From the NCBI GenBank assembly GCA_028712475.1, contig JAQTQB010000005.1:43408-107407 (forward strand): DNA of 64,000 nt, in the 5' to 3' direction. A program made the translations under genes and the position numbers. Shown here piece by piece: positions 205-35,804 of this stretch (its first letter is position 1; every line of letters begins with the position of its first letter). The notes under the pieces were generated by a model. The model did not search any database and was not told the origin of the DNA. It worked only from the letters and a program-made list of their open reading frames with translations. Source of the DNA: Verrucomicrobiales bacterium (lineage in GTDB: Bacteria > Verrucomicrobiota > Verrucomicrobiia > Limisphaerales > UBA11358).

Positions 205-1737
205 CTGCCGTCTGGGATTTGATGCTTGGTTCTTCACGGGGAAAATTTCCGTCACCGCTTCGCACAGCGTTGAAACCATCTTCTGCAATTGCGCCTTCGT
301 CGTGCAATAGGGCGGCATCAGCACAATTACGTTTCCTACAGGCCGCGTCAGCACGCCGCGCCGCGCCATCGCCTCGCATACGCGGATGCCGGCGCGGTCG
401 CGCAGGACAAACGGCTCGCGCGTCCGCCAGTTTTTAACAAGTTCAATTCCCGCGACCAGTCCGACATGGCGCACGTCGCCGATGTTTGGCAGCGACCAGA
501 GCGATTGCAGCACTTCGTGCAGATTTTTCTGCAACTGCGCGCGCTGGCGGATGGATTTTTCCGTCTGCAAAATTTCCACGCTCGCCACCGAGGCCGCCGC
601 GCCGAGCTGGTTGCCGGTGAAACTGTGGCCGTGGAAAAAAGTTTTAAACTCCTCGTATTCGCCAAGGAACGCGTCAAAAACTTTTTGCGTCGTGAGCGTC
701 GCCGCCATCGGCAGGTAGCCGCCGGTCAGGCCTTTCGCCAGGCAGAGAAAATCCGGCTGAACAGCTTCGTGATGAGAGGCGAATAAGCCATCGTAGCGGC
801 CGACGTGAGGAGGCTCTAATTTTTTCCGGGAATTTGGAATGAGCCTCCTCACGTCGGCTGCTACGATGCCAGTGCGGCCAAACCCAGTCATCACCTCGTC
901 CGCTATGAGCAGTGCGCCGTGGCGGCGCGCGATGTCCGCGACTTGTCGCAGCCAGCCGTCCGGCTGCGGAATCATTCCTGCCGCGCCTTGCATCAATGGC
1001 TCGAAAACGAATGCCGCGTAAGGATTCCCTTTTTTCTTCTGGGTGGAAAATTTCTGCTCCACTTCGCCGACACACTCCCAGTTGCACTTCCGATAATTCC
1101 GCGCGTCGGCGCGTTCCGGCTTGGCGCGGTTGAACGGACAGCGGTAGCAATACGGCGACATCACCTTGTCCGTCCTGAACAGCATCCCGCCGTAGGCCCG
1201 GTGAAACAGATCAATGTGGCCGAGCGAAACCGCGCCAATCGTGTCGCCGTGATACGCGCCGTCCAGCGAGAGAAATTTAGGAGTCACGGCTCGCGAGGAA
1301 GCTCGTCCCGCCGTTTTACCACGTGTGCGGCGCGTGAATTCATAGGCGAGCTTGAGCGCGACTTCCAACGCTGTCGAGCCGTCGTCGGAAAAGAAAACCT
1401 TCTCCAATTTCGGATTTCGGATTTCGGATTTCGGATTGGCTGCCTGAACCAGCTTTGCTGCCAGTAAAGACGCCGGTTCATTCGCATAGCCCAGCGCGGA
1501 GCTGTGGGAAATTTTCTTCAACTGCCGCGCGATGGCGGAATTGATCTTTGGATGCTGATGGCCGTGAAGATTGGTCCAGATGGAGGAATTGGCGTCGAGA
1601 TATTCCCTGCCGCGCACGTCGCGCAGCACTGCGCCCTGGCCGGAGGCGATGACGATAGGCTCGCGCTTGAGCCAGTCGCGCATCTGCGTGAAGGGATGCC
1701 AGACAAACTTCCGGTCGAGTTGGGCGAACTTGTTCAT
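193..1737 (-). CDS. bioA: Adenosylmethionine-8-amino-7-oxononanoate aminotransferase (BioA) with extra in-frame insert segments
   Basis: 514-aa ORF with class-III aminotransferase/BioA blocks: VWHPFTQM, SSIWTNLHGH, FFSDDGSTALEVALKLA, LLIADEVMTGFGRTG, DFLCLAKGLTGGYLP. Its ATGA start overlaps the bioF stop. Confidence 0.93.
   Translation of the reverse strand: MNKFAQLDRKFVWHPFTQMRDWLKREPIVIASGQGAVLRDVRGREYLDANSSIWTNLHGHQHPKINSAIARQLKKISHSSALGYANEPASLLAAKLVQAANPKSEIRNPKLEKVFFSDDGSTALEVALKLAYEFTRRTRGKTAGRASSRAVTPKFLSLDGAYHGDTIGAVSLGHIDLFHRAYGGMLFRTDKVMSPYCYRCPFNRAKPERADARNYRKCNWECVGEVEQKFSTQKKKGNPYAAFVFEPLMQGAAGMIPQPDGWLRQVADIARRHGALLIADEVMTGFGRTGIVAADVRRLIPNSRKKLEPPHVGRYDGLFASHHEAVQPDFLCLAKGLTGGYLPMAATLTTQKVFDAFLGEYEEFKTFFHGHSFTGNQLGAAASVASVEILQTEKSIRQRAQLQKNLHEVLQSLWSLPNIGDVRHVGLVAGIELVKNWRTREPFVLRDRAGIRVCEAMARRGVLTRPVGNVIVLMPPYCTTKAQLQKMVSTLCEAVTEIFPVKNQASNPRRQASV
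789..868. repeat. 80-nt palindromic element (28-nt arms, 24-nt loop) embedded in frame in bioA
   Basis: Arm 789-816 is catcgtagcggccgacgtgaggaggctc. The reverse complement of arm 841-868 is catcgtagcagccgacgtgaggaggctc, a 27/28 match. The element encodes the extra BioA residues IVAADVRRLIPNSRKKLEPPHVGRYDG. Confidence 0.9.
1407..1437. repeat. Heptanucleotide tandem repeat (ATTTCGG)x4.4 inside the bioA coding sequence
   Basis: Direct reading gives atttcgg atttcgg atttcgg atttcgg att. On the coding strand it translates as NPKSEIRNPKL. Confidence 0.92.
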
Positions 1738-2906
1738 GGCTTCAAGGTATTCAGCGCCGCAAGCAGTTCAGCTACGTCTTCCGCCGAGTGTGCAGCGGTC
1801 AGCGTGATCCGCAACCGCGCCGCGCCGCGCGCCACGGTCGGATAACGAATGGCGGGAATAAAAATGTTTTGCTCGCGCAGTTTTGCAGCCAGGTCAACGG
1901 CCTTGGTTTCGTCGCCAATCATGAGCGGGATGATGGCGCTGGGAATTGCGGATTGCAGATTGCGGATTGCGGATTGAAATTCTGCAACGCGCGACCGCAG
2001 CTTTTCTTTGAGTGATTTACCGGCGGCAGATTGAACGACTTGAATTCCTGCCGTGGCTGCCGCGGCGGCGGCGGGAACGGGCGCGGTGCTGAAAATGAAA
2101 CTGCGGGCGCGGTGCATGAGAAGATCAATCAGCGGACGCGAGCCGCAAATGTAGCCTCCGCTGGCGCCGAGCGCCTTGCCAAGCGTGCCCATCTGGATTT
2201 CAATCCGGCTGCCGACACCAAGCTCTTCCGCAAGGCCACGCCGCTTTTCCCCGTAAAGCCCGGTCGCGTGCGCTTCGTCCACCATGAGCCAAGCGCCGTA
2301 TTTGTCCTTGAGCATGACGATTTCCCGGAGCGGTGCGGTGTCGCCGTCCATCGAAAAAATGGATTCAGTGACGATTAGGACGCGCTTTCGATGTTGGATG
2401 TGTTTTTTTGCCCACATCAACTTTTCTTCCAGGTCGTTCAGATCATTGTGGGCAAAGACGCGGAGCTTTGCGCCGCTCAAGCGCGCGCCGTCCACGATGC
2501 AGGCGTGGACAAGTTTGTCGAGAATGATGATGTCGTCCTTGCCTAGCAGCGCGCAAATCGTGCCGGTGGCGGCGGCGTAACCGGTGGAAAATGTCAGCGC
2601 GGCCCCGGTCTTTTTGAAAGCAGCGAGTGTTTCCTCCAGTTCGTGAAACGGCGCAAGCGAACCGCAGATGAGCCGGGACGCGCCCGCGCCCGCGCCAGAT
2701 TTTTCGACCGCTTTGATCGCGGCCTCTTTAAGCGCCGGATGATTGGCGAGGCCGAGATAATCGTTGGAAGAAAAATTCAGAAAAGTTGTGCCGGCGATTT
2801 TGATTCTTGGCGACTGCGGTGAATCCACCCGGCGCAGTTCGCGGTGCAAGCCTTGTGCGCGCAAGGCTTCAAGGCGCTGGTTCAATTCTTCATCGAACGG
2901 ATTCAT
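1734..2906 (-). CDS. bioF: 8-amino-7-oxononanoate synthase (BioF)
   Basis: 390-aa ORF with an alpha-oxoamine synthase signature: NFSSNDYLGL, GAGASRLICG, LMVDEAHATGLYG, and GTLGKALG containing the PLP lysine. It lies immediately upstream of bioA and overlaps it. Confidence 0.92.
   Translation of the reverse strand: MNPFDEELNQRLEALRAQGLHRELRRVDSPQSPRIKIAGTTFLNFSSNDYLGLANHPALKEAAIKAVEKSGAGAGASRLICGSLAPFHELEETLAAFKKTGAALTFSTGYAAATGTICALLGKDDIIILDKLVHACIVDGARLSGAKLRVFAHNDLNDLEEKLMWAKKHIQHRKRVLIVTESIFSMDGDTAPLREIVMLKDKYGAWLMVDEAHATGLYGEKRRGLAEELGVGSRIEIQMGTLGKALGASGGYICGSRPLIDLLMHRARSFIFSTAPVPAAAAAATAGIQVVQSAAGKSLKEKLRSRVAEFQSAIRNLQSAIPSAIIPLMIGDETKAVDLAAKLREQNIFIPAIRYPTVARGAARLRITLTAAHSAEDVAELLAALNTLKP
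1945..1976. repeat. Heptanucleotide tandem repeat (ATTGCGG/ATTGCAG)x4.5 inside the bioF coding sequence
   Basis: Direct reading gives attgcgg attgcag attgcgg attgcgg attg. On the coding strand it translates as FQSAIRNLQSAI. Confidence 0.9.
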
Positions 2907-2913
2907 CGGGGGA

Positions 2914-2991
2914 ATTTACGATTTGAGACTTGCGATTTACGAGCCAAAAGACTCACTGTCGCGTCAATCGTAAATCGCATATCGTAAATTT
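2914..2991. repeat. Two inverted heptamer arrays (ATTTACG family) forming a long imperfect hairpin in the bioF/amidohydrolase intergenic gap
   Basis: Left array, 2914-2941: atttacg atttgag acttgcg atttacg. Right array, 2969-2989: cgtaaat cgcatat cgtaaat, which is the reverse complement of atttacg atatgcg atttacg. About 27 nt separates them. Confidence 0.8.
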
Positions 2992-9677: not shown

Positions 9678-12600
9678 TTAGCTCGCAGCCGCAAGGTTCG
9701 GACGCAGATTCCACACAAAGCCGATTGAATCCAGTTGTTGTTTGCGGGCCGGAGAAATTTTGCCACGAAAGTTTGCCGTGCGCTGGCCATTGACCCATTT
9801 TCCAAGCCGCTTTTGCTCGAGCGAAATATGTTCGCGGGATTTTTGCGGGACGTTGCAATGACCGTGAATTTTTCTGAACTCGACGAGTGCTGTAAACATT
9901 CTCTCCCAACTCAATGGTTCAACGAGCATCCAAATAAAACCGAGTTCATCAAGCCGCTTGGCGCGTTCTGCCATAATTGGGCGTTTATATCGTTTCGCAG
10001 CCCTTTGGTTTCTAACCCATGTTCCGAGTTCCCGGTATTTGCCAGAACGTTGAGGCACATTTGTGTGACCATGCTCCTGCTTGAACTCGACCAACTGCCG
10101 AAAATATTTCTCCCAATGATTGCTGTTTGGATCCCAATCAAAGCCCAACTCATCGAGCCGACGGGATCGCTCCGCATCAAGCAATCCTTTATTATTGATC
10201 ACTCTTTGTTCTGAAACCCAATCTGCAAGTCTCGGATTTTCTTTGCAACGCTGGGGCACAAGACAATTCCCATGTGCTTGCTTGTATTGTTGGAGCGCGA
10301 GGAACATTGCGTCCCACGCCTGAGCAGCCGTCAGTATATTGCCGCGTTGATTGAGCATTGGCAGTGCGCCTCGTCGCTCAACAATCCACTCGAAGCCAAT
10401 TCCATCCAAAGCAGCCATGCGTTCAGCTTTTAATTCTCCATGCTTTTTGAATCGCCGTTGCGTGGCAACCCAGTTGGCAAGTTTGCGATTGCCTGACCAT
10501 TGCCCCGGAACTCGGCAATGACCATGCTCACTTTTGAATGCTTGGAGAGCTTCGAGCATTTTCCCCCAGCCCTCGTCATCGGATGAAACTCCACCATGTT
10601 GCGGCGACCAGTCGAAACCAAGTTCATCGAGTCGTGCAATCTGTGTTGAGTCAAGTTTCCCCTTTCGACGATCCCGGCGTTGAATTGTCACCCACCAGCC
10701 AAGCTTTCTATTCGGGACAAATTTCTGCGGGACATTTGCATGATCATTTTCCAGACGGAATTGTTTGAGCACTGCAAACATTGCTTCCCACGCTTGTCCG
10801 GGCGGTCGCCCACCAGACCAGCTAACGCGCCATGAGAATCCGAGCGCATCAAGTGCGGTGATGCGTTTGGCAGATAGTTTCCCAGCCACTTTGCGCGCTC
10901 TTTGAACTGCAACCCAACTGGCCAGCTTTGGATTCTTTGACCATTTCGTCGGAACGCGGCAGTGCCCGTGTTCAGAGTGGAATTGCCGGAGCATTTCAAA
11001 CATTTGTTCCCACTGTTTGGAAAGCGGTTGCCATTCAAAACCGATGCCGTTGAGCCTTTGTTCGCGCGCCGCGTCAAACTCGCCATTCTTTTTGAATTGC
11101 CGCTGGGTCACCATCCACCTTCGCAATTGCGCATCCATGACACTGTCACGCGGTTTTCCGTTGTGCATTGGCCGTAGATACTGAACCAACTTCGCGAACA
11201 TGGTTTCCCATTCACCATCATTCGTGTTCCAAGCAAAACCGATTTCGTCCATCTGCCGCACTTGGTCAGCCGTCAGGTTGTTCCGTTGCTTTGCTGCGCG
11301 CTGGTGATAAACCCACCGTGCCAGTTCTGGATTTGCCTGCCAATCGGCGGGAACATTGCAATGCCCGTGCAGCTTGAAGAATTCGCCCACTTCAGAAAAC
11401 ATCTCACTCCATGTGCGCGACACAGGTTTGTGAAAATCCGGCGGCAATTTCGGCGCTGGCGTGCTCTTGTTCCGCTGCCAAATAAATCCAACCGCATCCA
11501 AAGTGCGAAACCGCGCATCGCTTAATTGTCCGGTTTTTTTAGCCCTTCGCTGTGTCAACACCCAGCGGTTTAGCTTGGCCGTCTCGTCATCAATGACTCT
11601 CACGATTGAAGCGCCATTTGCAGACGCGCATTTTTTGAATCGCTCGAACATTTCAAACCACTGCTTGTCAGTGTTTGGAGGCGCAGGTGTCCATGGGAAA
11701 TCAATTTCGTCTAACCGCTTCTTAATTTCGACTGGCAGCGTTCCGTTCTTGAGTCGTCTCCGTTGCTCGGTCATCCAGTTCGCCAAGCCCGGATAATTTT
11801 TGTCGAGATGTGAAACTGCCAGATGTCCATGCTCGGCTTTATGTGCGAGCAGTGCTGCAATCCTCTCATTCAAATCTTTGGCCGGCGGCAAGGCGTTGGG
11901 CGCTTTCCACTCAAAGCCGATTGAGTTTAGTCGGCCTTCGTAGTCCTTGTTCAGTTTGCCTTGGTTGCCCTTGTATCTTTGGGCGGACACCCATCTACCG
12001 AGCAGTGGGTTCTCCTTCCATTTGACCGGCACAAGCGTGTGGCCAAACCGTTCTTTGTAAGCACACAACTCCGCGAATCGTTCATCCCAAGTAGCCACGC
12101 CACCCGTCCACTCAAATCCGATTTTCTCCAGCATCGCAATCCGTTCACTAGACAGCTTGTTGCGACCGTAATCAACGCGCTGGGAGCTGACCCACCTTGC
12201 AAGCTTCTTGTTTTCCTTCCAATTCAAAGGGACGAAGCAATTGCCAAAACGATTTCGGTAATCCAAGAGCGCAAGATAATATGTCCGCCATGTGCTGGCG
12301 TGCGGCGACCATTTGAATCCGATGCGGTCGAGCAGTGCGATTTTTTCTTCCTCTAGCACCCCATCTTTTTGCAGCACGCGCTGATTTACGACCCAAGTTG
12401 CAAGTTTCTGATTTTCCGGCCAACGGGCGGGCATGTCGCGATTCCCATGCTTCTGCTGATAAGCCAAGAGTTGTCCATAACGCTCAAACCAACCTTCACC
12501 AATCGCATCAAGACACGCAGCGGTAATTGATTGTCGCAAACTATCCAGCGAAATCTCCGGGCCAATCATTTCCAAGCGTTCACGAATACGACTTTCATCA

Positions 12601-14573
12601 AAGCCGCCAGTCCGTCCGCGTTGGATTCGCATATCGTCTATGATTTGCGACAGCAAATCATCCTGCTCTTTCAACGCTTGAAGGACTTTCCAAATCTCGT
12701 CGAAGTTGCTCCGCAGAACGGCTTGCTCAACCGTTTCGCCTCGCGTCTTCTCCACATAAAGCGGCACGAGCACATACCCGAATTGCTTGCCGGGCGACCG
12801 ACGCATCGCGCGACCAGTCGCTTGAACAATGTCAACCATGCTCCGGCGCGGCGCGAGAAACGCGACCATGTCAACCGCAGGCACGTCAACTCCTTCAGTC
12901 AAACATCTGGCGTTGGAAAGAATCGCGTGCGGCGCTGACTTGAACCCACGCATGACGCGCTCACGATAGGCGGTAGGCATCGCGCCTTCGATATGCTCGC
13001 AATGGAATCCCTGCAAATGATTGGAGATGCCCGCCGCTCCATCAGAGGTAAAAGATTTTGCGGCATCCACTCTTGAGTGAAACGTGAAAACCTTCGAGAC
13101 GTTGTATTTCTCAATGGCAGATTTTAGGGCGATTTGATTGGCAACCTGACGCGCTTTGATTTCTTCGCCTTTAACCAAGACAATCCCGCGCCGGAGCAAT
13201 TCGTCATTCACCATGTCAGAAGTAACTTCTGAAATGATGACTTTGTAATCAGAAATAATTCCTCGCTTCGCCGCCTCGCTGAATGGCAGACGGTAAACAA
13301 TCGGGCCGTAAGTCTCCCGTTTGTCCATCGAGAAAACAAGTTGGGCACCGCCATCTTTGTTTTTGGCGAGTGGATTGTAATGTCGCGGGGTGGCGGTCAC
13401 GAACAGACGTTTGTGGATGGAAATGTTTTTATCTTCCAGCGCAAAACCAAAGTTGCGGCCTTCGCGTCCGGCGGTCTTGTGCGCTTCATCAAACACGGCA
13501 AAGTCAAACGCCTCGCCCGGCTTCATCGCCCCGCCAACGACGGACGCGGATTGGTAGGTGGAGAAAATCATTTTCACGCCGGCAAAAGGTGCGTCCAGAA
13601 AACTCCGCACGCTCGCGGTGTCGGTGGAGACTTGAAAGTCGAGGTCGGATTGTTGCGTGGTGAGCGCGTCTATGCCTTCCTTCACGGTCGGGTCGGAGCA
13701 GACGCAGAGATAGGCGAGACCCGGCAATCGGGTTTCGCGCAGCCATTCGTGAAGGGTCTGCCGCAGCAACGCAAGCGAAGGCAGCAGGACGAGAATCTTG
13801 CAACCAGCATTGGTGGGGCGAGGCTCCTGACGAGCCGGTTCGGTGGAATTTCCAGCACGGCTCGCGGGGACGCTTGCCCCACAGGCCTTCGCAATATGTT
13901 CAGCCACCCAAAGTGCAACGAGCGTTTTGCCCGTGCCGCAAGCCATGATCGCGGAAACGCGGTCGTGTGTTTGCAGCGCGGGGAGCAAGGCGTCCAGCGC
14001 TTCGGTCTGGTGCGGGAGCGGTGATTTTTTCGGCGCGATGAAAGCGGTGTCGGCCAGCCACGCTTCCATCGCGCGGAAGTCACCGGCTTCCAAACGATCC
14101 AAGTCCGAGCCACGGATGCAGAAGAAACCCTGGCGGTCATTGAGGACGGCGGGCAGTTCGTCGCAGTTGGTGAGCAGCACGCGGCTGTGGATGCGCGAAC
14201 TATCGGCCAGTCCGATGAAGGTGGAGAGTTCACGCCACGTCAGCGCCGGGCGTCCGGTGCGGAACTTGATTTGATAGGCGTTGAACTGGCCGAGCAAAGT
14301 TTGCAACACGCCGTCCACGCCCTGATCCTGCTGCGTGAGGCCGAGATTTTTGAGGATGTCGAGCGGGACGGAACCGTGCGGCCAGACTTGCGCGGCGTCG
14401 TATTTCCGTTGCGTGGCGAGATAGGCTTCGGCGAAAACTTCAAACGCAGCACCGCGAGATTGCTCGTCGGGCAGCGCGGCAATCTTCTGTTCCAATTCAG
14501 CAAAGCTGGTCAGGCCAGAGAACAAATGTCGCTGGACGAAGAAGGTCGCTTTTGGATGGCGAGCCGTTGCCAT
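9678..14573 (-). CDS. Large nuclease-helicase: N-terminal PD-(D/E)xK-like module, SF2 (type III restriction Res-like, DEAH) helicase, and 13 tandem helicase-associated (HA) domain repeats
   Basis: 1631 aa. The N-terminus has FEVFAEAYL...GVDGVL...YQIKFR, a restriction-endonuclease-like D...(Q/E)xK pattern. Helicase motif I is ACGTGKT, motif II is FDEAHK and motif VI is QATGRAMR. Thirteen repeats of about 67 aa follow, with the pattern W-x3-F-x2-L-x2-(F/Y)-x4-GH-x2-VP ... L-x-WV-x2-QR ... L-x2-(I/L)GF-x-W. Confidence 0.9.
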   Translation of the reverse strand: MATARHPKATFFVQRHLFSGLTSFAELEQKIAALPDEQSRGAAFEVFAEAYLATQRKYDAAQVWPHGSVPLDILKNLGLTQQDQGVDGVLQTLLGQFNAYQIKFRTGRPALTWRELSTFIGLADSSRIHSRVLLTNCDELPAVLNDRQGFFCIRGSDLDRLEAGDFRAMEAWLADTAFIAPKKSPLPHQTEALDALLPALQTHDRVSAIMACGTGKTLVALWVAEHIAKACGASVPASRAGNSTEPARQEPRPTNAGCKILVLLPSLALLRQTLHEWLRETRLPGLAYLCVCSDPTVKEGIDALTTQQSDLDFQVSTDTASVRSFLDAPFAGVKMIFSTYQSASVVGGAMKPGEAFDFAVFDEAHKTAGREGRNFGFALEDKNISIHKRLFVTATPRHYNPLAKNKDGGAQLVFSMDKRETYGPIVYRLPFSEAAKRGIISDYKVIISEVTSDMVNDELLRRGIVLVKGEEIKARQVANQIALKSAIEKYNVSKVFTFHSRVDAAKSFTSDGAAGISNHLQGFHCEHIEGAMPTAYRERVMRGFKSAPHAILSNARCLTEGVDVPAVDMVAFLAPRRSMVDIVQATGRAMRRSPGKQFGYVLVPLYVEKTRGETVEQAVLRSNFDEIWKVLQALKEQDDLLSQIIDDMRIQRGRTGGFDESRIRERLEMIGPEISLDSLRQSITAACLDAIGEGWFERYGQLLAYQQKHGNRDMPARWPENQKLATWVVNQRVLQKDGVLEEEKIALLDRIGFKWSPHASTWRTYYLALLDYRNRFGNCFVPLNWKENKKLARWVSSQRVDYGRNKLSSERIAMLEKIGFEWTGGVATWDERFAELCAYKERFGHTLVPVKWKENPLLGRWVSAQRYKGNQGKLNKDYEGRLNSIGFEWKAPNALPPAKDLNERIAALLAHKAEHGHLAVSHLDKNYPGLANWMTEQRRRLKNGTLPVEIKKRLDEIDFPWTPAPPNTDKQWFEMFERFKKCASANGASIVRVIDDETAKLNRWVLTQRRAKKTGQLSDARFRTLDAVGFIWQRNKSTPAPKLPPDFHKPVSRTWSEMFSEVGEFFKLHGHCNVPADWQANPELARWVYHQRAAKQRNNLTADQVRQMDEIGFAWNTNDGEWETMFAKLVQYLRPMHNGKPRDSVMDAQLRRWMVTQRQFKKNGEFDAAREQRLNGIGFEWQPLSKQWEQMFEMLRQFHSEHGHCRVPTKWSKNPKLASWVAVQRARKVAGKLSAKRITALDALGFSWRVSWSGGRPPGQAWEAMFAVLKQFRLENDHANVPQKFVPNRKLGWWVTIQRRDRRKGKLDSTQIARLDELGFDWSPQHGGVSSDDEGWGKMLEALQAFKSEHGHCRVPGQWSGNRKLANWVATQRRFKKHGELKAERMAALDGIGFEWIVERRGALPMLNQRGNILTAAQAWDAMFLALQQYKQAHGNCLVPQRCKENPRLADWVSEQRVINNKGLLDAERSRRLDELGFDWDPNSNHWEKYFRQLVEFKQEHGHTNVPQRSGKYRELGTWVRNQRAAKRYKRPIMAERAKRLDELGFIWMLVEPLSWERMFTALVEFRKIHGHCNVPQKSREHISLEQKRLGKWVNGQRTANFRGKISPARKQQLDSIGFVWNLRPNLAAAS
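13813..13882. repeat. Imperfect 70-nt palindromic element in frame within the helicase gene, between motif I and motif Ia
   Basis: Arm 13813-13837 is gtggggcgaggctcctgacgagccg. The reverse complement of arm 13858-13882 is gtggggcaagcgtccccgcgagccg, a 19/25 match. The loop contains ggaattt, as does the bioA element loop. It encodes CGASVPASRAGNSTEPARQEPRPTN. Confidence 0.7.
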
Positions 14574-18696: not shown

Positions 18697-21069
18697 TTAT
18701 GTTCCTCCGTTTTTGCGGGACGGGTTGCGCCGGACCTTCACAAGCACAACCATGACAGCAACCCACACACATCCCCACCCAAACCAATCGCCATGCCGGT
18801 TGTAAAAGGTCGGCGCGGGTTTTTCAGCCGGCAACGGCAGTTCCATGGTCATCCAGCCGGGGCCGTAAATGCCGCCGGTGGCGTCCTTGAAAACCTGCCG
18901 CACCCGTCCGTGCGTGTCTATCCAGCAGGTCACGCCGTTGTTGCAGGAGCGCACGAGCGGCAGGCCGTTTTCCACCGCGCGGAAAATCCCGGCGGCGGCC
19001 TGCTGCCATTGCTCCGCGCCTTCGCCGAACCAGCCGTCGTTGGTCAGGTTCACAAGAAAATCAATGTCATCGCGGGCGGAATCGCGGGCGGTCTGCGGAA
19101 ACATGTCTTCAAAGCAGATCAGCGGCGCGGTCTTGATGGGAGCGCCGGCCTCCGGCCCGGCATTCAGGGAAATCACATTTATTTCGGGCCGGGCCGGAGG
19201 CCGGCGTTCCAATTCAAAACTCCCGGGTTTTTCGCCGGCTTCGTAGCCGCCGGTGATGGGCGTGAGCCATTTCACGAATGGCAGCCAGCGCACGAGCGGA
19301 ATGTATTCGCCGAAGATGACGAGCTTTTGCTTGTGATAGACGCTGACAAATTTTCCATCCGGGTCGAACAGGAACGCGGAGTTGAAAACGTCGTAATCAT
19401 TTTTGCCCTTCGCATCGGGCCGCCACACGGCGTCGTCCGCATTAAACATCATCCAGACGTGATGCGCGCGGACGAGGTTGGTGATGGCGGCGTAGCTGGC
19501 CTCGTCGAATTCCGGCAATGCCGATTCCGGCCAGATGAGCAGGTCGGTTGAACCTCTCACCTCGTCCGTCTGCCCGTTTGGCGGGGCGATGGTGGAGGAA
19601 GCCAAAGCCTTTTCCGTGAGCGCGAGCAATTGCTGAAAGCGATTTGAATTTGCGCTCGAGTCCCAAATCATGCTTTGCGGCACGCTTGGCTGAATCATCG
19701 TAATGCGGAGCGGGGCAGGGCTGAAACTGGAGTCTGGCTTGGCCCGCATTTGAAAACTGCCGGTGGCAAACAAAATGGCGACGACGAGCAGCGGCAGAAA
19801 AACTTCCGGCTGCCAGGCAAAGCGCGCGTCCGGCTTGGAAAAAATGGCGAGCATTGCCGAGAACAGCGACAACGAAACCCACACGACCAGAAACGAAACG
19901 CCATAAACACCCGTGACCGCCGCGATTTGAATAAGCGGCGTAAGCTGATATTGGGACGTGCCGAGCATGTTCCACGGAAACCCGCCGAGGAAACGTGCGC
20001 GAATCATTTCAAGGCCGACCCAGGTTGCCGCGCCCGCCAGCGCCCAAAGATTTCGCCTTGTCCAGGTGCCGGCTCCAATTTTTCCAGCGAAGAGCCACGT
20101 CCAGACGGCAAAGTAAAGAGCCATGAACGCGCTCAACGCGACCCAGCCCAAAACCGGATAGCCCGCCACGGGAATCAGCAGCAGCCAGTAAAGTGATGCG
20201 AGCCAGAATGAAATTCCGGCGACGTAGCCGACGCGAAAGGCATCGCCGCCAGATTGACCAAGCGCGGCGACGAGCATCAGTGCAGGCGCGACCCACGCAA
20301 AACCGGCGATGCCGGGGTTGGGAAATGCTGCGGCCAGCAAAAGCCCGGCGACGATGGCCAGCAGGTAGCCGCTGCGGATGAACAGTTCGTTCCAGACACT
20401 TTTGAGAATGGTGAATGGTGAATAGCCATCCACAAACGTCGGCCCCGGCTTCGTGCATTTCGCGGCCTTCTTCAAAACCGACGGACTCGCGTTGACGACC
20501 ACGGCTTCGCGCGAACCGCGCCACACGGCGAAATCGGCAGAGGAATTTCCGGCGTAATCAAAACCGCGCGCGCCAAATTTTTCCGTTAGCAGCTTGAGCT
20601 TGTTTTCGCTCCGCAAATTGGTTTTGCCGTCGCTGCCCAGCACTTCGTCAAACAAACCGACGTGACTGGCGACGGGCAGGGCCATTTGCAAGTCCGATGC
20701 AGTGGCGAGAATCAGTTTTCGCCCGCCAGATTTTTGTTCGCGCAGAAACGCCAGAAATTTTTCGTGATAGGGCAGGGTGACGGGATCAATTTTAATCCGC
20801 CGTGCCAGTTGTTTTTTTAGAAAGGCGCGGCCGCGCATCCACCAGACCAGGACGGGCAGAAGCCAGAACGGATTCCGCCGCAGCAAACGCGCGAGGTGTT
20901 CCCAAAGCAGGTCGGTCTTGATGAGCGTGCCGTCCAGATCCACCACGAGCGGGATTTGATTTGAGGGCGGCGCGGCTGGCGTTGACGGCATAGGGATGAT
21001 TAACCGTTGAGCGCGCGGTGGGGCAAGGTTTTTTTGGCCGGGAAACGGACGGGGCATCTCGTGATTCAC
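18697..21069 (-). CDS. lnt: Fusion protein: N-terminal HAD-IB-like phosphatase domain plus apolipoprotein N-acyltransferase (Lnt: polytopic membrane domain and CN-hydrolase domain)
   Basis: 790 aa. HAD motif I is VVDLDGTL, motif II is LATAS, and GNSSAD is motif-IV-like. Multiple TM helices follow, then a CN-hydrolase domain with LIWPESA and the catalytic-Cys context PLICFEDMF. The start overlaps the upstream gene in an ATGA junction. Confidence 0.85.
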   Translation of the reverse strand: MNHEMPRPFPGQKNLAPPRAQRLIIPMPSTPAAPPSNQIPLVVDLDGTLIKTDLLWEHLARLLRRNPFWLLPVLVWWMRGRAFLKKQLARRIKIDPVTLPYHEKFLAFLREQKSGGRKLILATASDLQMALPVASHVGLFDEVLGSDGKTNLRSENKLKLLTEKFGARGFDYAGNSSADFAVWRGSREAVVVNASPSVLKKAAKCTKPGPTFVDGYSPFTILKSVWNELFIRSGYLLAIVAGLLLAAAFPNPGIAGFAWVAPALMLVAALGQSGGDAFRVGYVAGISFWLASLYWLLLIPVAGYPVLGWVALSAFMALYFAVWTWLFAGKIGAGTWTRRNLWALAGAATWVGLEMIRARFLGGFPWNMLGTSQYQLTPLIQIAAVTGVYGVSFLVVWVSLSLFSAMLAIFSKPDARFAWQPEVFLPLLVVAILFATGSFQMRAKPDSSFSPAPLRITMIQPSVPQSMIWDSSANSNRFQQLLALTEKALASSTIAPPNGQTDEVRGSTDLLIWPESALPEFDEASYAAITNLVRAHHVWMMFNADDAVWRPDAKGKNDYDVFNSAFLFDPDGKFVSVYHKQKLVIFGEYIPLVRWLPFVKWLTPITGGYEAGEKPGSFELERRPPARPEINVISLNAGPEAGAPIKTAPLICFEDMFPQTARDSARDDIDFLVNLTNDGWFGEGAEQWQQAAAGIFRAVENGLPLVRSCNNGVTCWIDTHGRVRQVFKDATGGIYGPGWMTMELPLPAEKPAPTFYNRHGDWFGWGCVWVAVMVVLVKVRRNPSRKNGGT

Positions 21070-24002
21070 GGCGCGACCGACACGTTATCGAACAGCGTGG
21101 AGTTCAGCACGGAATTGTTGTGCGCGGTGACGGCAAAACCCGCCAGCAGGTTTTTGTTCATGGGAATCCTGACGCTGCCGGTGGAAACCCAGTTCGTGCC
21201 ATCGGCGGAAACGTAGCCGATGAAAATATTGCCGCTGCGCGTGAGCTTCAGCCAGTGCGGCACTTTTACCGCCGGCCCGTCGGTGCTGGTCGTGAGATTG
21301 TCTGTCGCCGCGCGCGATTGAAACACGGAACCTCCCAGTCCCGTGAAACCCACAAATGCGTATTTCGCCCCGGCGGAAATATTTTCGCGCAGCATCACGC
21401 CGGCCTTTGCCCATGGGTCGGTGTATTGAAACGACTGGACGCGCGCGATGATCTGGCCGTCGCCCGCCAGCGGCTTGTAGGCAAAACGAAACGCATCGGC
21501 GCTTTCCCAGATGTCGCTGCCGGAGGCGAGCAGATGAAAATTACCGTTCAGGAAAGTTGTCTCGCCGGGCAAACCAACATCGCCGATGTCCGCATCCTGC
21601 CAGCCATGCGGCAAGGTCGGCGGCGCGACGTGCAGCGCACTGATCCATTGGGCGAACACGGCCACGGCCTTTTCATCCACGACATTTTTGGCGAGCGGCG
21701 GCATCTGGTTTTCACCGGCAAGGCTCATGCGGCGGAACAAAATTGATTTGTTCGTGTCGCCGGGCGCGATGATTTTTGCGCCGGTGATGCCAAGCGGATT
21801 TTGCACGGGGCCGTTGATGAGATTCTGCTTCGCAAGCGGCGTGTCGAAGCGCGCATCAAAGAACGCGCCCGCGCCGCCGGGGCGATGGCATTGCGCGCAA
21901 TTGGCATCGAGGTAGGAACGGATTCGCAAATTCGGCGATGCGTGCGGGTCGGCGATGGCGGCAAGTTTGGGCAGGCGGGAAATTTTCTTTTCGTCGAGCG
22001 GCATGTCAAACAGCGCGAGGTGATTCAACGTGCGAAGCTGGTTGTCAGTGACGCCGTTCGGATACTTGAAATCGCCATTCAACTGGCGCGTTTTCACGCC
22101 GAGAACACCGCCGGAGATTGTCGTGTGGCAGGTGATGCAATCCTGCCGGCCGGGATAAAACCATTTTTGCGTGCGCGAGCCGGCCGCAGTTTTGACTTCG
22201 ATGTCCTCGTTCGTTCCCACGGAAACCAGATCCGCATCGCTATTATCCGCGCGCCATTTGTAGCTCGCGCCATAGACGGTGCCGTCCGTGTCGCGAACGA
22301 GCAGGCGCGTCTCAAGGCGGTGGAGAATCCGGGGATTCGTGTCGTCCACCGGCAGTTGGAAATCTTTCACGAACACCGTGCCGGCGGGGAATGTCCATTC
22401 GCCCGTTTCCGAAAAATTGATTTTGGAATTCGCCGGCACCACGAGCCAGCGCGACTTCACCGCGCCATCCGACCACAGCGGCGAATTGACCGTGTAAGGA
22501 ATCAGCGCGTCGGCGGGCGTAAGTTTTTCGAGGTCGGCGAACGCGCCGGTTTGCGAGAGGAGATTTGGCAAAACTTTGGCCGGCGGTGGCGGGCCGCCGC
22601 GTTGCAGTTTGTAAATGCACCCGCCGATGCTGCTCATCTGGCAGAGATAAATTTCGCCGTCGGCGTCCGTGCCAAAGGATGAGAGGCCGGTGTAATCCGT
22701 GCCTGCGTTCGGGCCGGGGCCTTTGGGCAGGACGCAGAGCAGCGTTTTTTTGAACGGCGTGGTCGTCTCGTCAAGCGCCCAGACGGTGCGCATGACGTTG
22801 TCGCCAAAAATATATTTGCCGCCGAGGTCGCGCGCGAATTCTTTGCCGCGATAAACATAACCGCCGATGACCGCGCGGCCTTCGCTGTGCGAATAATCCA
22901 GCGCCGGCCCGCGGCTCGTGCCGATGAACGGGGCGGCCATTTTGCCGAGCGTGCCTTCGCAGCGGTTCCACTGGAAATTAAGGCCGGACTCGCCGGATTC
23001 GATCACGTCAATCTCTTCGCGCGCGCTTTCGCCGACGTCGCCGATGAAAATTTTCCCGCCCGGCGCGTCGTAAGACATGCGATGCGGACTGCGCAGGCCG
23101 AGGCAGAAAAATTCCTCCAGCACATTCGACTGGCCGACGAACGGATTGTCGTTCGGAATGAAATAATTTGCGGTGAAGCCGCCAGTTGGCTGGCGTGGCG
23201 GAGCGTGGCTCACATCTCCGCCGCGACAATCCACGTCCACGCGAAAGACGCCTGAATAAAGGCTTTTATTGATGATCTGGTCGTTGTCGCCGACGGAATT
23301 GTCACCGTCCGTCCAGTAAAGGAATCCATTCGTGGGGTGGAAAAACATTCCGCCGCCGTGATGCCAGACGGTCTGGTTGGTGAGATCCACGAAAGTTTTC
23401 ACCGAGCCGGGAATGGCGACGCCGTCCGCGTCGAGCTTGTAGCGTTCGAGACGGTCGTGATAGGTGCCGGGCAGAACCGGATCGGGCCGGGTGGTCGGAC
23501 TGCCGGCGACGGTGCCCGGTTTGACCCAGGTGTAATAGACGAACATGAAATGATTAGTGGCGAAGCCGGGATGAAATGCGATGCCCAACAGCCCGGAATC
23601 GTCCCAGCCCTGGCATTGGCTGCTGATGTCGAGGATGAGTTTTTTCTCCATCGCGCCGGGAGTGTTTTGAAACGTCCACACGCGGCCTTCACGTTCCCAG
23701 ACGCAAAGTTCGTCCGTGCCAGGAACGGACGTAAGGCCGGTGCTGTTGGTGAAAACGAGATTGGTGAACGCGACGACGGCGGACCAGTTGCCGGAAATGC
23801 CCGGCGCTACTTCGGGCATCGTGCCGTTGAGAAATGCGCCGACAGGCGGACGATTGGTGAGGCCGTAGGGTTTGGCGGCGGCGTGGAAAATGAGGCCGCC
23901 CAGCAAAGCGAGGGACAGCAGCCATTGGCGGTTTTTGAAAAACGTCTTGATCACAACCGGGACGCGCACAAGTTTCGCCGCCCCGCGCGCGGCGTCAACC
24001 AA
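21066..24002 (-). CDS. Secreted multidomain protein: PQQ-dependent sugar dehydrogenase-like beta-propeller, c-type cytochrome motifs, and a C-terminal concanavalin/LamG-like domain
   Basis: 978 aa with an N-terminal signal anchor. GIAFHPGFATNHFMFVYYT is typical of soluble glucose/sorbosone dehydrogenase folds. There are two CxxCH motifs (CITCH, CAQCH). The C-terminal ~190 aa are beta-rich (DIWESADAFRFAYKPLAGDGQI...). Confidence 0.78.
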   Translation of the reverse strand: MVDAARGAAKLVRVPVVIKTFFKNRQWLLSLALLGGLIFHAAAKPYGLTNRPPVGAFLNGTMPEVAPGISGNWSAVVAFTNLVFTNSTGLTSVPGTDELCVWEREGRVWTFQNTPGAMEKKLILDISSQCQGWDDSGLLGIAFHPGFATNHFMFVYYTWVKPGTVAGSPTTRPDPVLPGTYHDRLERYKLDADGVAIPGSVKTFVDLTNQTVWHHGGGMFFHPTNGFLYWTDGDNSVGDNDQIINKSLYSGVFRVDVDCRGGDVSHAPPRQPTGGFTANYFIPNDNPFVGQSNVLEEFFCLGLRSPHRMSYDAPGGKIFIGDVGESAREEIDVIESGESGLNFQWNRCEGTLGKMAAPFIGTSRGPALDYSHSEGRAVIGGYVYRGKEFARDLGGKYIFGDNVMRTVWALDETTTPFKKTLLCVLPKGPGPNAGTDYTGLSSFGTDADGEIYLCQMSSIGGCIYKLQRGGPPPPAKVLPNLLSQTGAFADLEKLTPADALIPYTVNSPLWSDGAVKSRWLVVPANSKINFSETGEWTFPAGTVFVKDFQLPVDDTNPRILHRLETRLLVRDTDGTVYGASYKWRADNSDADLVSVGTNEDIEVKTAAGSRTQKWFYPGRQDCITCHTTISGGVLGVKTRQLNGDFKYPNGVTDNQLRTLNHLALFDMPLDEKKISRLPKLAAIADPHASPNLRIRSYLDANCAQCHRPGGAGAFFDARFDTPLAKQNLINGPVQNPLGITGAKIIAPGDTNKSILFRRMSLAGENQMPPLAKNVVDEKAVAVFAQWISALHVAPPTLPHGWQDADIGDVGLPGETTFLNGNFHLLASGSDIWESADAFRFAYKPLAGDGQIIARVQSFQYTDPWAKAGVMLRENISAGAKYAFVGFTGLGGSVFQSRAATDNLTTSTDGPAVKVPHWLKLTRSGNIFIGYVSADGTNWVSTGSVRIPMNKNLLAGFAVTAHNNSVLNSTLFDNVSVAP

Positions 24003-34174: not shown

Positions 34175-34385
34175 ACGAAGCGCAGCGTTCACGCCGCTTC
34201 ATCGTTCGTGGCGAAAAGTTTTCTGGTTGAAACCGGGCTTGAAGTTTTTGAGGGTTCAAGCGGGCTGAAGCCCGCGCTCCGGCTGCAACGAGATCAAGCT
34301 TACGACGCCATCACTTAAAATCCGTTGGGCGATCTTTATCGCCCTTGCGCTGCTCGCGCTTGCCGTCCGCCTCCCGCAACCCGGC

Positions 34386-35804
34386 GTGCGGCCGATGCAC
34401 ACGGACGAATCCATCAACGCCTACATCGTCGGCCAGTTGCTTGCCGGAGAAAGCTTTCACTACGACCCGCAGGATCGTCACGGCCCGGCGCTCGCCGCCG
34501 AAACCCTGCCGTTGGTCAAATTGCTTGGCGTAAAAAAGTTCGCCGACCTGACCGAACCTCAACTGCGCATGGTTCCCGCCCTCACAGGAGCCGTCACCGT
34601 TTTACTATTTGGCGCGGGCGTGGAGATATTTGGATTCACAGCGTGCATCATCGCTGCGCTGCTGTTCGCCTTCGCGCCGCTGCCGGTTTATTACAGCCGC
34701 TATTTCATTCATGAAACCTTGTTTGTCGCCGCCACCCTGGGGCTGATTCTTTCCGGCGGGCGGGCGCTTAAAAAAAAATCCCTTCTGCCCGCCGCGCTTG
34801 CCGGAGGCTGCGCCGCTGTGATGCTCGCGTGCAAGGAAACGGCGGTCATCCACTTCTTCGCACTGGCCGTTGTTCTGATTGCCCGCTGTTTGGGAACGCC
34901 GGCCTCCGGCACGGCCCGGACGAAAGAATTTTTGAAACACGTCGTGCCGGAGACCGGCGTTCCGTCCGCAAAGATAATTTTCACCGCCGCCGCAGTTTTT
35001 ATCTTCACCGTGATTTTGCTGTTCACCTGGTTCGGCCAGAACTGGCCGGTGTTTTTAAATTTGCTGGACGCGATTCCACGCTTCGCCGACCGCGCCGGTG
35101 GCCAAGGCCACGAAAAGCCGTTCTGGTATTACTCAACCCTCCTCGGTGGCGGCTGGTCGGGCGCGGTGATTCTTGGTCTGGCGGCGCTGGGCATTTTTCG
35201 CGCGTTCAAATCGGGCCGCAGGCTTTGGGTCGTCATTTACGCGTTGCTCATCGCCGTGATTTACAGCGCGATTCCCTACAAAACTCCGTGGCTCGCTCTG
35301 AACCTCTGGCTGCCGCTGGCAATTCTCGCAGGCATGGCGCTCGAATGGATTTGGTTCGCCACGTCAAAACTTCCCATCCGTGTTTTGGTTCTGGTTTTCA
35401 TCGGTGCGTTAGGAATTTTAATCGCCCATGACACGCGGCAACGGGTGTTTGTGAATCCTGCGGGCGAAAAAAATCCCTATGCCTACGCCCATACTTCCGA
35501 AGATTTGCTGCGCCTGCCGGCGCGTCTGGAGGAACTGGCGCGGGAAAACAAAATTCAAAATCCGCTCATCGCCGTGGTCGCCGCCGATGCGTGGCCGTTG
35601 CCCTGGTATTTGCGGAAATTTCAACAGACCGGCTTCTGGCAGCCGGGGCAGGAGACCGGCCCGGCGGATTTTTTCATCACCACGACGGATGTGCACGGCA
35701 CGCTGGCAGAGCGATTGAAAGATTTCCGCCCGGAATTTTTCGGCGTCCGCCCGGAAGTCCTGATGATTCTCTGGACGCCGCTGCCGGCTGGAAACAAACC
35801 ATGA
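34386..35804 (+). CDS. GT-C-fold-like polytopic membrane protein (TIGR03663/Agl23-like family). The annotated GTG start probably truncates the first TM helix.
   Basis: 472 aa with RPMHTDESINAYIVG near the N-terminus and many TM helices. The same frame is open upstream from 34269 and encodes a TM-like segment, KIRWAIFIALALLALAVRL, but no ATG, GTG or TTG occurs there. Confidence 0.72.
   Translation: MRPMHTDESINAYIVGQLLAGESFHYDPQDRHGPALAAETLPLVKLLGVKKFADLTEPQLRMVPALTGAVTVLLFGAGVEIFGFTACIIAALLFAFAPLPVYYSRYFIHETLFVAATLGLILSGGRALKKKSLLPAALAGGCAAVMLACKETAVIHFFALAVVLIARCLGTPASGTARTKEFLKHVVPETGVPSAKIIFTAAAVFIFTVILLFTWFGQNWPVFLNLLDAIPRFADRAGGQGHEKPFWYYSTLLGGGWSGAVILGLAALGIFRAFKSGRRLWVVIYALLIAVIYSAIPYKTPWLALNLWLPLAILAGMALEWIWFATSKLPIRVLVLVFIGALGILIAHDTRQRVFVNPAGEKNPYAYAHTSEDLLRLPARLEELARENKIQNPLIAVVAADAWPLPWYLRKFQQTGFWQPGQETGPADFFITTTDVHGTLAERLKDFRPEFFGVRPEVLMILWTPLPAGNKP

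Follow-up and report, generated by a model that had tools for sequence, protein, structure and literature searches.

An in-frame palindromic insertion in a Verrucomicrobiales bioA gene, very probably a RayT-associated GTAG REP doublet

The question raised by a 64,000-nucleotide stretch of a Verrucomicrobiales bacterium (NCBI GenBank assembly GCA_028712475.1, contig JAQTQB010000005.1, positions 43,408 to 107,407 of the forward strand; hereafter the window) is how a near-perfect palindrome of 80 nt came to lie within bioA, the gene for adenosylmethionine-8-amino-7-oxononanoate transaminase, without interrupting its reading frame. We hold with good confidence that the palindrome is a REPIN-like doublet of repetitive extragenic palindromic (REP) units of the GTAG-headed, RayT-associated type, which inserted in frame in bioA and is very probably translated as a tolerated loop. 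An earlier note on this DNA had proposed a REP/MITE-like selfish element (MITE standing for miniature inverted-repeat transposable element). The REP part of that proposal stands and can be sharpened to a GTAG-headed REP doublet whose arms flank a RayT gene in related genomes.

The product of the bioA open reading frame (ORF) scores 452 bits against TIGR00508 (cutoff 405), and its best PDB matches are BioA structures, down to an E-value of 3e-112. The gene order around bioA is syntenic with that of three related loci (L001-L003). A repeat search recovers the palindrome exactly as it had been described, with 28-nt arms at 789-816 and 841-868 that are complementary at 27/28 positions (96%) and separated by 24 nt (Table 1). 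Folded as mRNA, the 98-nt region comprising it reaches -60.5 kcal/mol, against -25.2 +/- 3.3 kcal/mol for shuffled sequences (z = -10.9), and 0/200 shuffles equal it. The frame used by bioA has no stop codon in the element and stays open through it into the LAKG lysine block, so that the claim of an undisturbed downstream frame holds as well.

The palindrome coincides with additional protein sequence. In alignment with Bacillus subtilis BioA the product shows a break between query residues 292 and 318, both of which fall on chain residue 263, leaving about 25 extra residues between GRTG and LFA where the earlier note had supposed them. At the DNA level, the syntenic orthologue of L002/L003 (protein P0082, 473 amino acids (aa)), found in the same gene order as in the window (sigma-54, S30AE, amidohydrolase, bioF, bioA, GDSL lipase), has an empty site in which ...ACTGG is directly followed by AAACATATTTGCC; the window and L001 have 78 nt more. 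The anchor spacing from DEVxTGFGR to PDFLCLAK is 117 nt in the window versus 39 nt in empty-site and distant BioAs. Among 80 metagenome BioA loci this 39-nt spacing (TGKMFACEHENV) is found in every distant BioA (42-48% identity) and in several close ones, the distant proteins having the short GRTG-K-(L/M)FA arrangement. The empty syntenic orthologue and the short spacing in all distant BioAs therefore identify a net in-frame insertion of 78 nt, or 26 aa, in the window, with boundaries ambiguous by about 3 nt, and not an ancestral loop. No clear target-site duplication shows at the bioA junctions when the DNA of window, L001 and L002 is aligned; a GGC is the most that might count as one. Identity is 75-84% for the 120 nearest BioA homologues, and those among them that carry a name come from Verrucomicrobiae or Limisphaerales metagenome-assembled genomes (MAGs).

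The inserted sequence is one member of a repeat family with dispersed copies. When one genome per GTDB species was scanned with the pattern GACGTRAGGAGNCTC-N10-40-GAGCCTCCTCACGTC, which combines the two arm cores, at least 118 stretches matched, nearly all of them in Verrucomicrobiota MAGs and often many per genome; the palindrome thus has the other copies that its description as a mobile element implied. Hosts among the matches listed are Limisphaerales, Pedosphaera and Verrucomicrobiales MAGs; MAG JACRJZ01 alone has at least 14 family loci, and several others have at least 3-4. The family unit consists of GTAGCAGCCGACGTGAGGAGGCTC, a variable spacer and the reverse complement, with the GTAG heads outward. 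The window copy matches the family consensus at 47/48 arm positions and has GTAG on both arms. Arm positions 1-9, which lie outside the search pattern, read GTAGCAGCC, and eight of these nine are conserved at 91-99% over 232 arms (G 97%, T 94%, A 94% and G 98% at positions 1-4), position 5 being C in 76% and G in 20%. Past GTAG, complementarity falls to near chance, flank pairs being complementary in 18-42% of copies. The spacer varies in sequence and, from 17 to 39 nt, in length. When arms with at most 4 mismatches are considered, 252/272 are paired, heads outward, with an inverted arm no more than 60 nt away. Within the arm, the pair formed by positions 8 and 21 is C-G in 208 of the 232 arms and A-T in 8, with 16 non-pairs. 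Rfam has no family matching the repeat; its matches to animal microRNA precursors were dismissed as generic hairpins (41 bits versus a gathering score of 97).

Further features of the family copies deserve mention. The 12 nt outside each GTAG are poor in G (11-19% versus a 30% background in 116 copies, L004-L121, to which one MAG supplies many members, a possible bias). Pyrimidines dominate positions -1 and -2, with C at 53% and T at 26% in the former, and A is over-represented at -5/-6. The G-poor outer flanks are either an extension of the element in degenerate form or the mark of a target preference. Spacers of several copies (L118 4915-4983, L097 4249-4317, L006/L026/L093) hold heptamer tandem repeats, AAATCCG or GCCGATT, which in other species also stand alone at the BioA insertion site; this hints that inserts made of heptamers only could be left over from REP doublets or could accompany them. 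Some copies lie on contigs binned as Bifidobacterium or Bifidobacteriaceae (L004, L035, L048, L049, L059, L072), and further odd labels are Klebsiella (L038), Gammaproteobacteria (L023) and Acidobacteriota names including Acidoferrum (L043, L074). L004 encodes the same class-III aminotransferase as the Pedosphaera locus L029 and has the element at the same site, the left arm being read in different frames in the two (VGADVRSL versus SSRREEA). The contigs with non-verrucomicrobial labels are probably mis-binned Verrucomicrobia DNA.

In relatives of the window the repeat family is linked to genes for RayT, the REP-associated tyrosine transposase. A gene of locus L064 (7389-7965) is 44.6% identical to the RAYT RB11751 of Rhodopirellula baltica (tblastn, E 6e-24; query from Additional file 5 of PMC3733652). 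A complete family doublet lies 60 nt upstream of it and the GTAG of the downstream arm contains its stop codon. The L064 query, once repaired at a frameshift (see below), retrieves 2087 relatives of about 192 aa, many of which JGI names 'REP element-mobilizing transposase RayT'; the homology of the L064 gene to RayT is drawn from these names and from the RB11751 match. Family arms are found on both sides of the RayT gene in 5/5 contexts (L064, L208-213, L214-219, L220 and L221-222), and the four contexts beyond L064 have intact homologues of 192-233 aa. The downstream arm lies -3 to +3 nt from the RayT stop, except in L220, where the nearest one is 54 nt beyond. A RAYT gene flanked by its own repeats is called a REPtron, the arrangement by which REP-RAYT systems are defined (PMC3733652; PMC3337134). 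Searching about 0.96 Mb of loci by tblastn with published RAYTs yields only two Y1-type genes. Many RayT homologues lie on very short contigs, as expected if flanking repeats break assemblies.

Within the enzyme, the insert follows G290, the equivalent of E. coli G255 (PDB alignment, query 7-290 on chain 8-255), and lies between D280, the conserved ADE aspartate that binds pyridoxal phosphate (PLP), and K335, the catalytic lysine of LAKG. An AlphaFold model computed with distant BioAs added has a mean predicted local distance difference test (pLDDT) score of 75.6 and a predicted template modelling (TM) score, pTM, of 0.82; a shallower run with 53 close homologues gave a pLDDT of 41.6 and was not used. 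In the model, residues 292-314 are under pLDDT 50 and the flanking elements (strand 276-280, helix 320-324, strand 330-333) are in place, the best structural match being B. subtilis BioA 3du4 (TM 0.79 on the target). This fits a predicted disordered excursion from an intact core. A position in a surface loop is plausible, given the low model confidence and the tolerance of the site for unrelated sequences. All catalytic motifs are intact in the window protein and a 53-sequence alignment has 72% mean identity, conservation from which we infer that the decorated BioA is probably functional. The reading frame is strictly conserved at the site across relatives: all 77 of the 77 BioA loci with both flanks are in frame, and the inserts, from +9 to +153 nt, are all multiples of 3 and all free of stop codons. 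Such a uniform pattern, which is stronger evidence than the model, is expected only if the inserts are translated.

The same site receives inserts in most related proteins. At least 3 extra residues are present there in 118/120 closest orthologues, in which other length variation is confined to two further internal sites and the C-terminus. The inserts fall in at least 14 unrelated sequence types. About 40 related proteins, encoded in ENA, JGI and NCBI assemblies that are independent of each other, have the window family at this bioA site, while other orthologues have doublets such as GTAGGGCAGGCGTCTCGCCTGCCC (VGQASRL...RRDACPT), GTAGCGGCGGTCTGTGACCGCCG (VAAVCDRR...GHRPPLQ) and GTTTGGAGTTCCGCCTTCAGGCGG (LEFRLQA...PPEGGTPN), or further types that include several heptamer tandem repeats (NSKFKIQNSK, KSEIRNPKSE, QSPKSKVQSP), the short non-palindromic heptamer inserts adding only 3-12 aa. 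The entry point differs by at most 2 codons between families: the GTAGGGCAGGCG family enters after R288, others after G290 or one codon on. Orthologues with an empty site also exist (P0081/P0082; metagenome loci such as L124 and L142). On a neighbour-joining (NJ) tree the insert type changes about 54 times (Fitch count), a number to be read as a rough sign of turnover only because the tree is star-like and poorly resolved; it gives a rough indication that the insert type may have turned over repeatedly.

These elements can be assembled in the following scenario, which is the one that we favor. Two 24-nt GTAG-headed REP units, inverted with heads outward around a short variable spacer, form a REPIN-like hairpin, and the repeat family would be the cognate repeat of a clade of RayT transposases of the HUH/Y1 type. 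RayT may mobilize the doublet via a single-stranded hairpin intermediate. One copy entered the bioA loop just past GRTG, between the strand of the PLP-binding Asp280 and that of the catalytic Lys335, where it could survive because its 78 nt are open in the frame used (VAADVRRL...EPPHVGRY) and the loop appears tolerant of extra residues. It would be translated as a 26-residue excursion, probably disordered and presumably exposed at the surface, that leaves the enzyme core unchanged.

Several points weigh against this scenario. The 64-kb window has neither a second copy of the family nor a RayT gene. The internal stem of each arm is only 4-5 bp (AGCC/GGCT or GAGCC/GGCTC) around a 10-nt loop, versus 6-9 bp in typical REPs. 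The RayT gene of L064 carries a one-base frameshift near 7735, and it scores 17 bits against Pfam Y1_Tnp, below cutoff; the frameshift, which puts the HUH part and the Y...ENPLRAELV part in different frames, could be that of a real pseudogene or a consensus error. The insert starts 3 residues past R288, the equivalent of the mutagenesis-studied R253 of E. coli BioA (PDB 1s07), so close that the surface loop may not be 'harmless', and the mRNA hairpin of -60 kcal/mol could impede translation. Lastly, the arms are unusually well kept. The nine bioA copies of the family (window and 8 orthologues) retain complementarity at 21-24 of 24 arm positions, and their arms are 0.88-0.96 identical to the window copy versus 0.83-0.84 for the adjacent coding DNA, itself highly conserved (flank identities from L001, L202 and L204 only, since orthologues with extra codons were misaligned, at 0.3-0.6, and left out). 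Arms better kept than the coding DNA around them are unlike an old insert that is passively tolerated and decays. The spacer has 24 nt in 7/9 of these copies, window included, most of the 24-nt spacers sharing their ends (ATTTCAAA...GAAGTTA) around a diverged centre. Two bioA copies have the GTAGGAGAC variant on both arms, and the same arm variants form genome-wide subfamilies. Near-perfect arms may come from selection on the hairpin, from conversion by other copies or from repeated re-insertion.

A different reading of the hot spot, which we regard as possible although on the unlikely side, is that the resident hairpin would be replaced or refreshed time and again, by RayT-type enzymes or by recombination between repeat copies, the site being a target and not only a permissive loop. 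At least three GTAG-headed families and others enter within a 3-codon window, insert types are scattered over the BioA tree with the changes counted above, the arms stay near the family consensus and pyrimidines are preferred beside GTAG. The families nevertheless enter at slightly different codons, and length variation at the two other internal sites and the C-terminus is what filtering by tolerance predicts; in addition the NJ tree is poorly resolved. If true, this reading would explain both the near-consensus arms in an old insertion and the presence of unrelated REP and heptamer families at the same three codons across the order, and a transposase would then be driving the production of hypervariable loops within a conserved enzyme.

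Co-option of the hairpin or of the extra loop is more doubtful. The hairpin would then tune translation or stability of the bioA mRNA, or the loop would be a needed spacer and not merely a tolerated one. The near-universal presence of some insert among the closest orthologues agrees with this idea, as do the high stability of the hairpin, the retention of arm complementarity above that of neighbouring coding DNA while the loop centre diverges, and the occurrence of the same variant on both arms in two copies. However, the variety of unrelated insert types, including heptamer repeats of a few residues, indicates that no particular peptide or hairpin is required, and orthologues with an empty site exist. 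The genome-wide subfamilies also mean that matching arms can stem from replacement and not from compensatory selection.

It is improbable that the arms are the terminal inverted repeats of a MITE from a DDE-type insertion sequence (IS). Inverted repeats of 24 nt around a short non-coding core and a weak internal stem per arm have the right appearance, but the bioA junctions lack a clear target-site duplication, the arms have a GTAG head, all five RayT contexts are flanked by the same arms, and no IS with these ends was seen in the 0.96 Mb of loci, where tblastn was run with RAYT queries. An assembly artefact, whether a metagenome mis-join or a dead bioA with an accidental open frame, is hardly credible: although the exact protein is found on one contig only (P0001) and palindromes and repeats break assemblies, and many RayT contigs are short, the same family sits at the same codon in some 40 proteins from independent assemblies, the catalytic motifs and the alignment are sound, the frame is kept at every locus and the operon with bioF is intact.

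The favored explanation, an in-frame RayT-associated doublet, is accompanied by other intragenic copies of the family. Of 110 copies, 54 lie within an open frame that extends for at least 50 codons to either side, and random segments of the same loci are spanned by such frames in 75% of trials. The first 20 spanning frames were compared to Pfam: nine have domains around or across the element, four are ambiguous and seven are without match. With 9/20 spanning frames backed by Pfam, some fifth to a half of the copies are therefore truly intragenic. The nine backed hosts are UvrB, DNA polymerase III alpha (DnaE), a heavy-metal P-type ATPase, a POT transporter, a Roc-COR protein, a type ISP restriction enzyme, a pseudouridine synthase and two class-III aminotransferases. 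Two of the arm's three frames are open, and all three of its complement, which explains recurring peptides such as VAADVRRL, SSRREEA, EPPHVGCY, SLLTSAAT and ASSRRLL. The length from GTAG to CTAC is not enriched for multiples of 3 (10/54 ORF-spanned versus 16/56 other copies), a comparison that is uninformative because the true inserted unit includes flank bases (72 versus 78 nt in bioA).

This habit sets the family apart from REPIN-RAYT systems (Bertels and Rainey 2011, PMC3116915; PMC3337134). Classic REPINs of Pseudomonas and enterobacteria are overwhelmingly extragenic, whereas here the location is not predominantly extragenic, as many as half of the copies being within long open frames; the REPs of Opitutus terrae depart from the rule in the same way (PMC3733652). 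The doublet as common unit, a RayT gene flanked by the same repeats and an apparently long persistence in the lineage are shared features.

Closer precedents show that the event is of a known kind, in this phylum too, and its novelty is modest. Di Nocera, De Gregorio and Rocco (2013; BMC Genomics 14:522, PMC3733652) divide REPs into GTAG- and CGTC-tagged superfamilies, give stems of 6-9 bp for most GTAG families and report intragenic GTAG REPs to be most numerous in the verrucomicrobium Opitutus terrae, where about 70 ORFs contain them in frame, with 20-30 aa encoded by a dimer and genes for repair and replication often among the hosts. The supposition that no equivalent had been described in this lineage is contradicted by that list. 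According to the same text, the O. terrae REPs share with the present family the phylum, the GTAG head, inverted dimers with variable spacers, in-frame positions in known genes, flanked RAYT genes and repair or replication hosts (uvrA and dnaE2 there, uvrB and dnaE here). The family described here differs in its longer arms (24 nt), its shorter internal stem, and its spread across many Limisphaerales, Pedosphaera and Verrucomicrobiales MAGs instead of one genome; a single-codon hot spot common to several families is not reported in the text available on O. terrae. The encoded peptides also differ (VAGVADPGPGSASPA, VGPALAAGRE... and GTGVPPV...HGRDARAT versus VAADVRRL...EPPHVGCY), and none of the O. 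terrae peptides listed in that text matches the present family.

Rickettsia palindromic elements (RPEs; Ogata et al. 2000, via PMC3733652 and PMC10969869), the precedent put forward in the earlier note, remain an analogue and are not the closest relative, a place taken by the O. terrae GTAG REPs of the same phylum. RPEs are likewise in-frame palindromes in many unrelated, apparently functional genes, retained in orthologues, and were proposed as a source of new protein segments (PMC3733652; PMC10969869). As described, they are unrelated in sequence and host lineage. RPE-4 and RPE-6 are CGTC REPs according to PMC3733652 and not GTAG-tagged, RPE-1 is without shown RayT association, and the hosts here are free-living soil and freshwater Verrucomicrobia, unlike the reduced intracellular genomes of Rickettsia. 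We treat RPEs as an analogy and not as a family assignment. A full-text literature search found no description of the repeat family or of the BioA hot spot, which is weak evidence of absence.

In-frame REP insertion is one of few known bacterial routes to brand-new peptide segments in old enzymes, with Rickettsia RPEs and O. terrae REPs as documented precedents. To these the locus adds a new, well-defined family, complete with cognate RayT, which is widespread among soil and freshwater Verrucomicrobiota and often located within genes. The hot spot, the well-kept arms and the empty alleles at hand make the locus more interesting. It offers a natural experiment in which one loop of an essential-pathway enzyme is filled by many repeats and can be compared to its unfilled form. 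The questions that follow concern the cost of the insert to the enzyme, the neutrality of very stable intragenic mRNA hairpins and the targeting of existing hairpins by RayT. On the practical side, such repeats swell the amount of 'hypothetical' sequence, break up MAG assemblies and can lead alignment-based annotation astray in the phylum.

Table 1. Positions in the window of bioA, its palindromic insert and other repeats
Feature	Position	Strand	Evidence or remarks
bioA (adenosylmethionine-8-amino-7-oxononanoate transaminase), 514 aa	193..1737	minus	ORF list; TIGR00508; PDB BioA matches
bioF	1734..2906	minus	TIGR00858, 437 bits; stop overlaps bioA start
80-nt palindrome	789..868		24-nt family arms plus 4 more complementary flank bases each (CATC/GATG)
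Net in-frame insertion, 78 nt, I291-D316 (IVAADVRRLIPNSRKKLEPPHVGRYD)	790..867	minus	DNA alignment of window, L001 and empty-site L002
5' arm (gene orientation)	841..864	minus	GTAGCAGCCGACGTGAGGAGGCTC, equals the family consensus exactly; encodes VAADVRRL
Variable loop/spacer, 24 nt	817..840	minus	encodes IPNSRKKL
3' arm (gene orientation)	793..816	minus	GAGCCTCCTCACGTCGGCCGCTAC, 1 mismatch to consensus; encodes EPPHVGRY
Single arm resembling the 13813-13882 family, in bioA	~1287-1312		encodes GKTAGRASSRAV
Heptamer tandem repeat ATTTCGG x4, in bioA	~1407-1437	plus (repeat as written)	encodes NPKSEIRNPK, BioA residues ~101-110
Inverted repeat with heptamer-like units (ATTTACGATTTGAGACTTGCGATTTACGA...)	2913-2990		intergenic, bioF/amidohydrolase gap; 34-nt arms, 79% complementary
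GTGG-headed palindrome, 20-nt spacer	13813-13882		within ORF 9678..14573, minus; encodes CGASVPASRAGNSTEPARQEPRPT just past GTGKT Walker A
Third-family palindrome (GGAGCGCCGGCCTCCGGCCCGGC / GGAACGCCGGCCTCCGGCACG)	19136-19213		ORF 18700..21084, minus
Third-family palindrome (GGAGCGCCGGCCTCCGGCCCGGC / GGAACGCCGGCCTCCGGCACG)	34893-34963		ORF 34269..35801, plus

The window holds at least four intragenic palindromes from three families. The GTGG-headed one, which the earlier note had pointed out as a second and weaker case, is real: its 25-nt arms have 76% complementarity, and the 1631-aa helicase ORF that contains it in frame has ResIII/DEAD, Helicase_C and 13 HA domains. Both third-family palindromes are also in frame, one in the CN_hydrolase domain of an Lnt-like apolipoprotein N-acyltransferase and the other in a PMT_2 glycosyltransferase. 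Within bioA, the heptamer tandem repeat and the single arm coincide with the other two length-variable BioA sites of relatives, and L001 has a different palindrome (GGTTGGAGTTCACGCTT...AAGCTTGGACTCCAACC) at the second of these sites. The end of bioF carries a repeat-encoded stretch (SAIRNLQSAIPSAI) related to the inverted repeat of the neighbouring intergenic gap.

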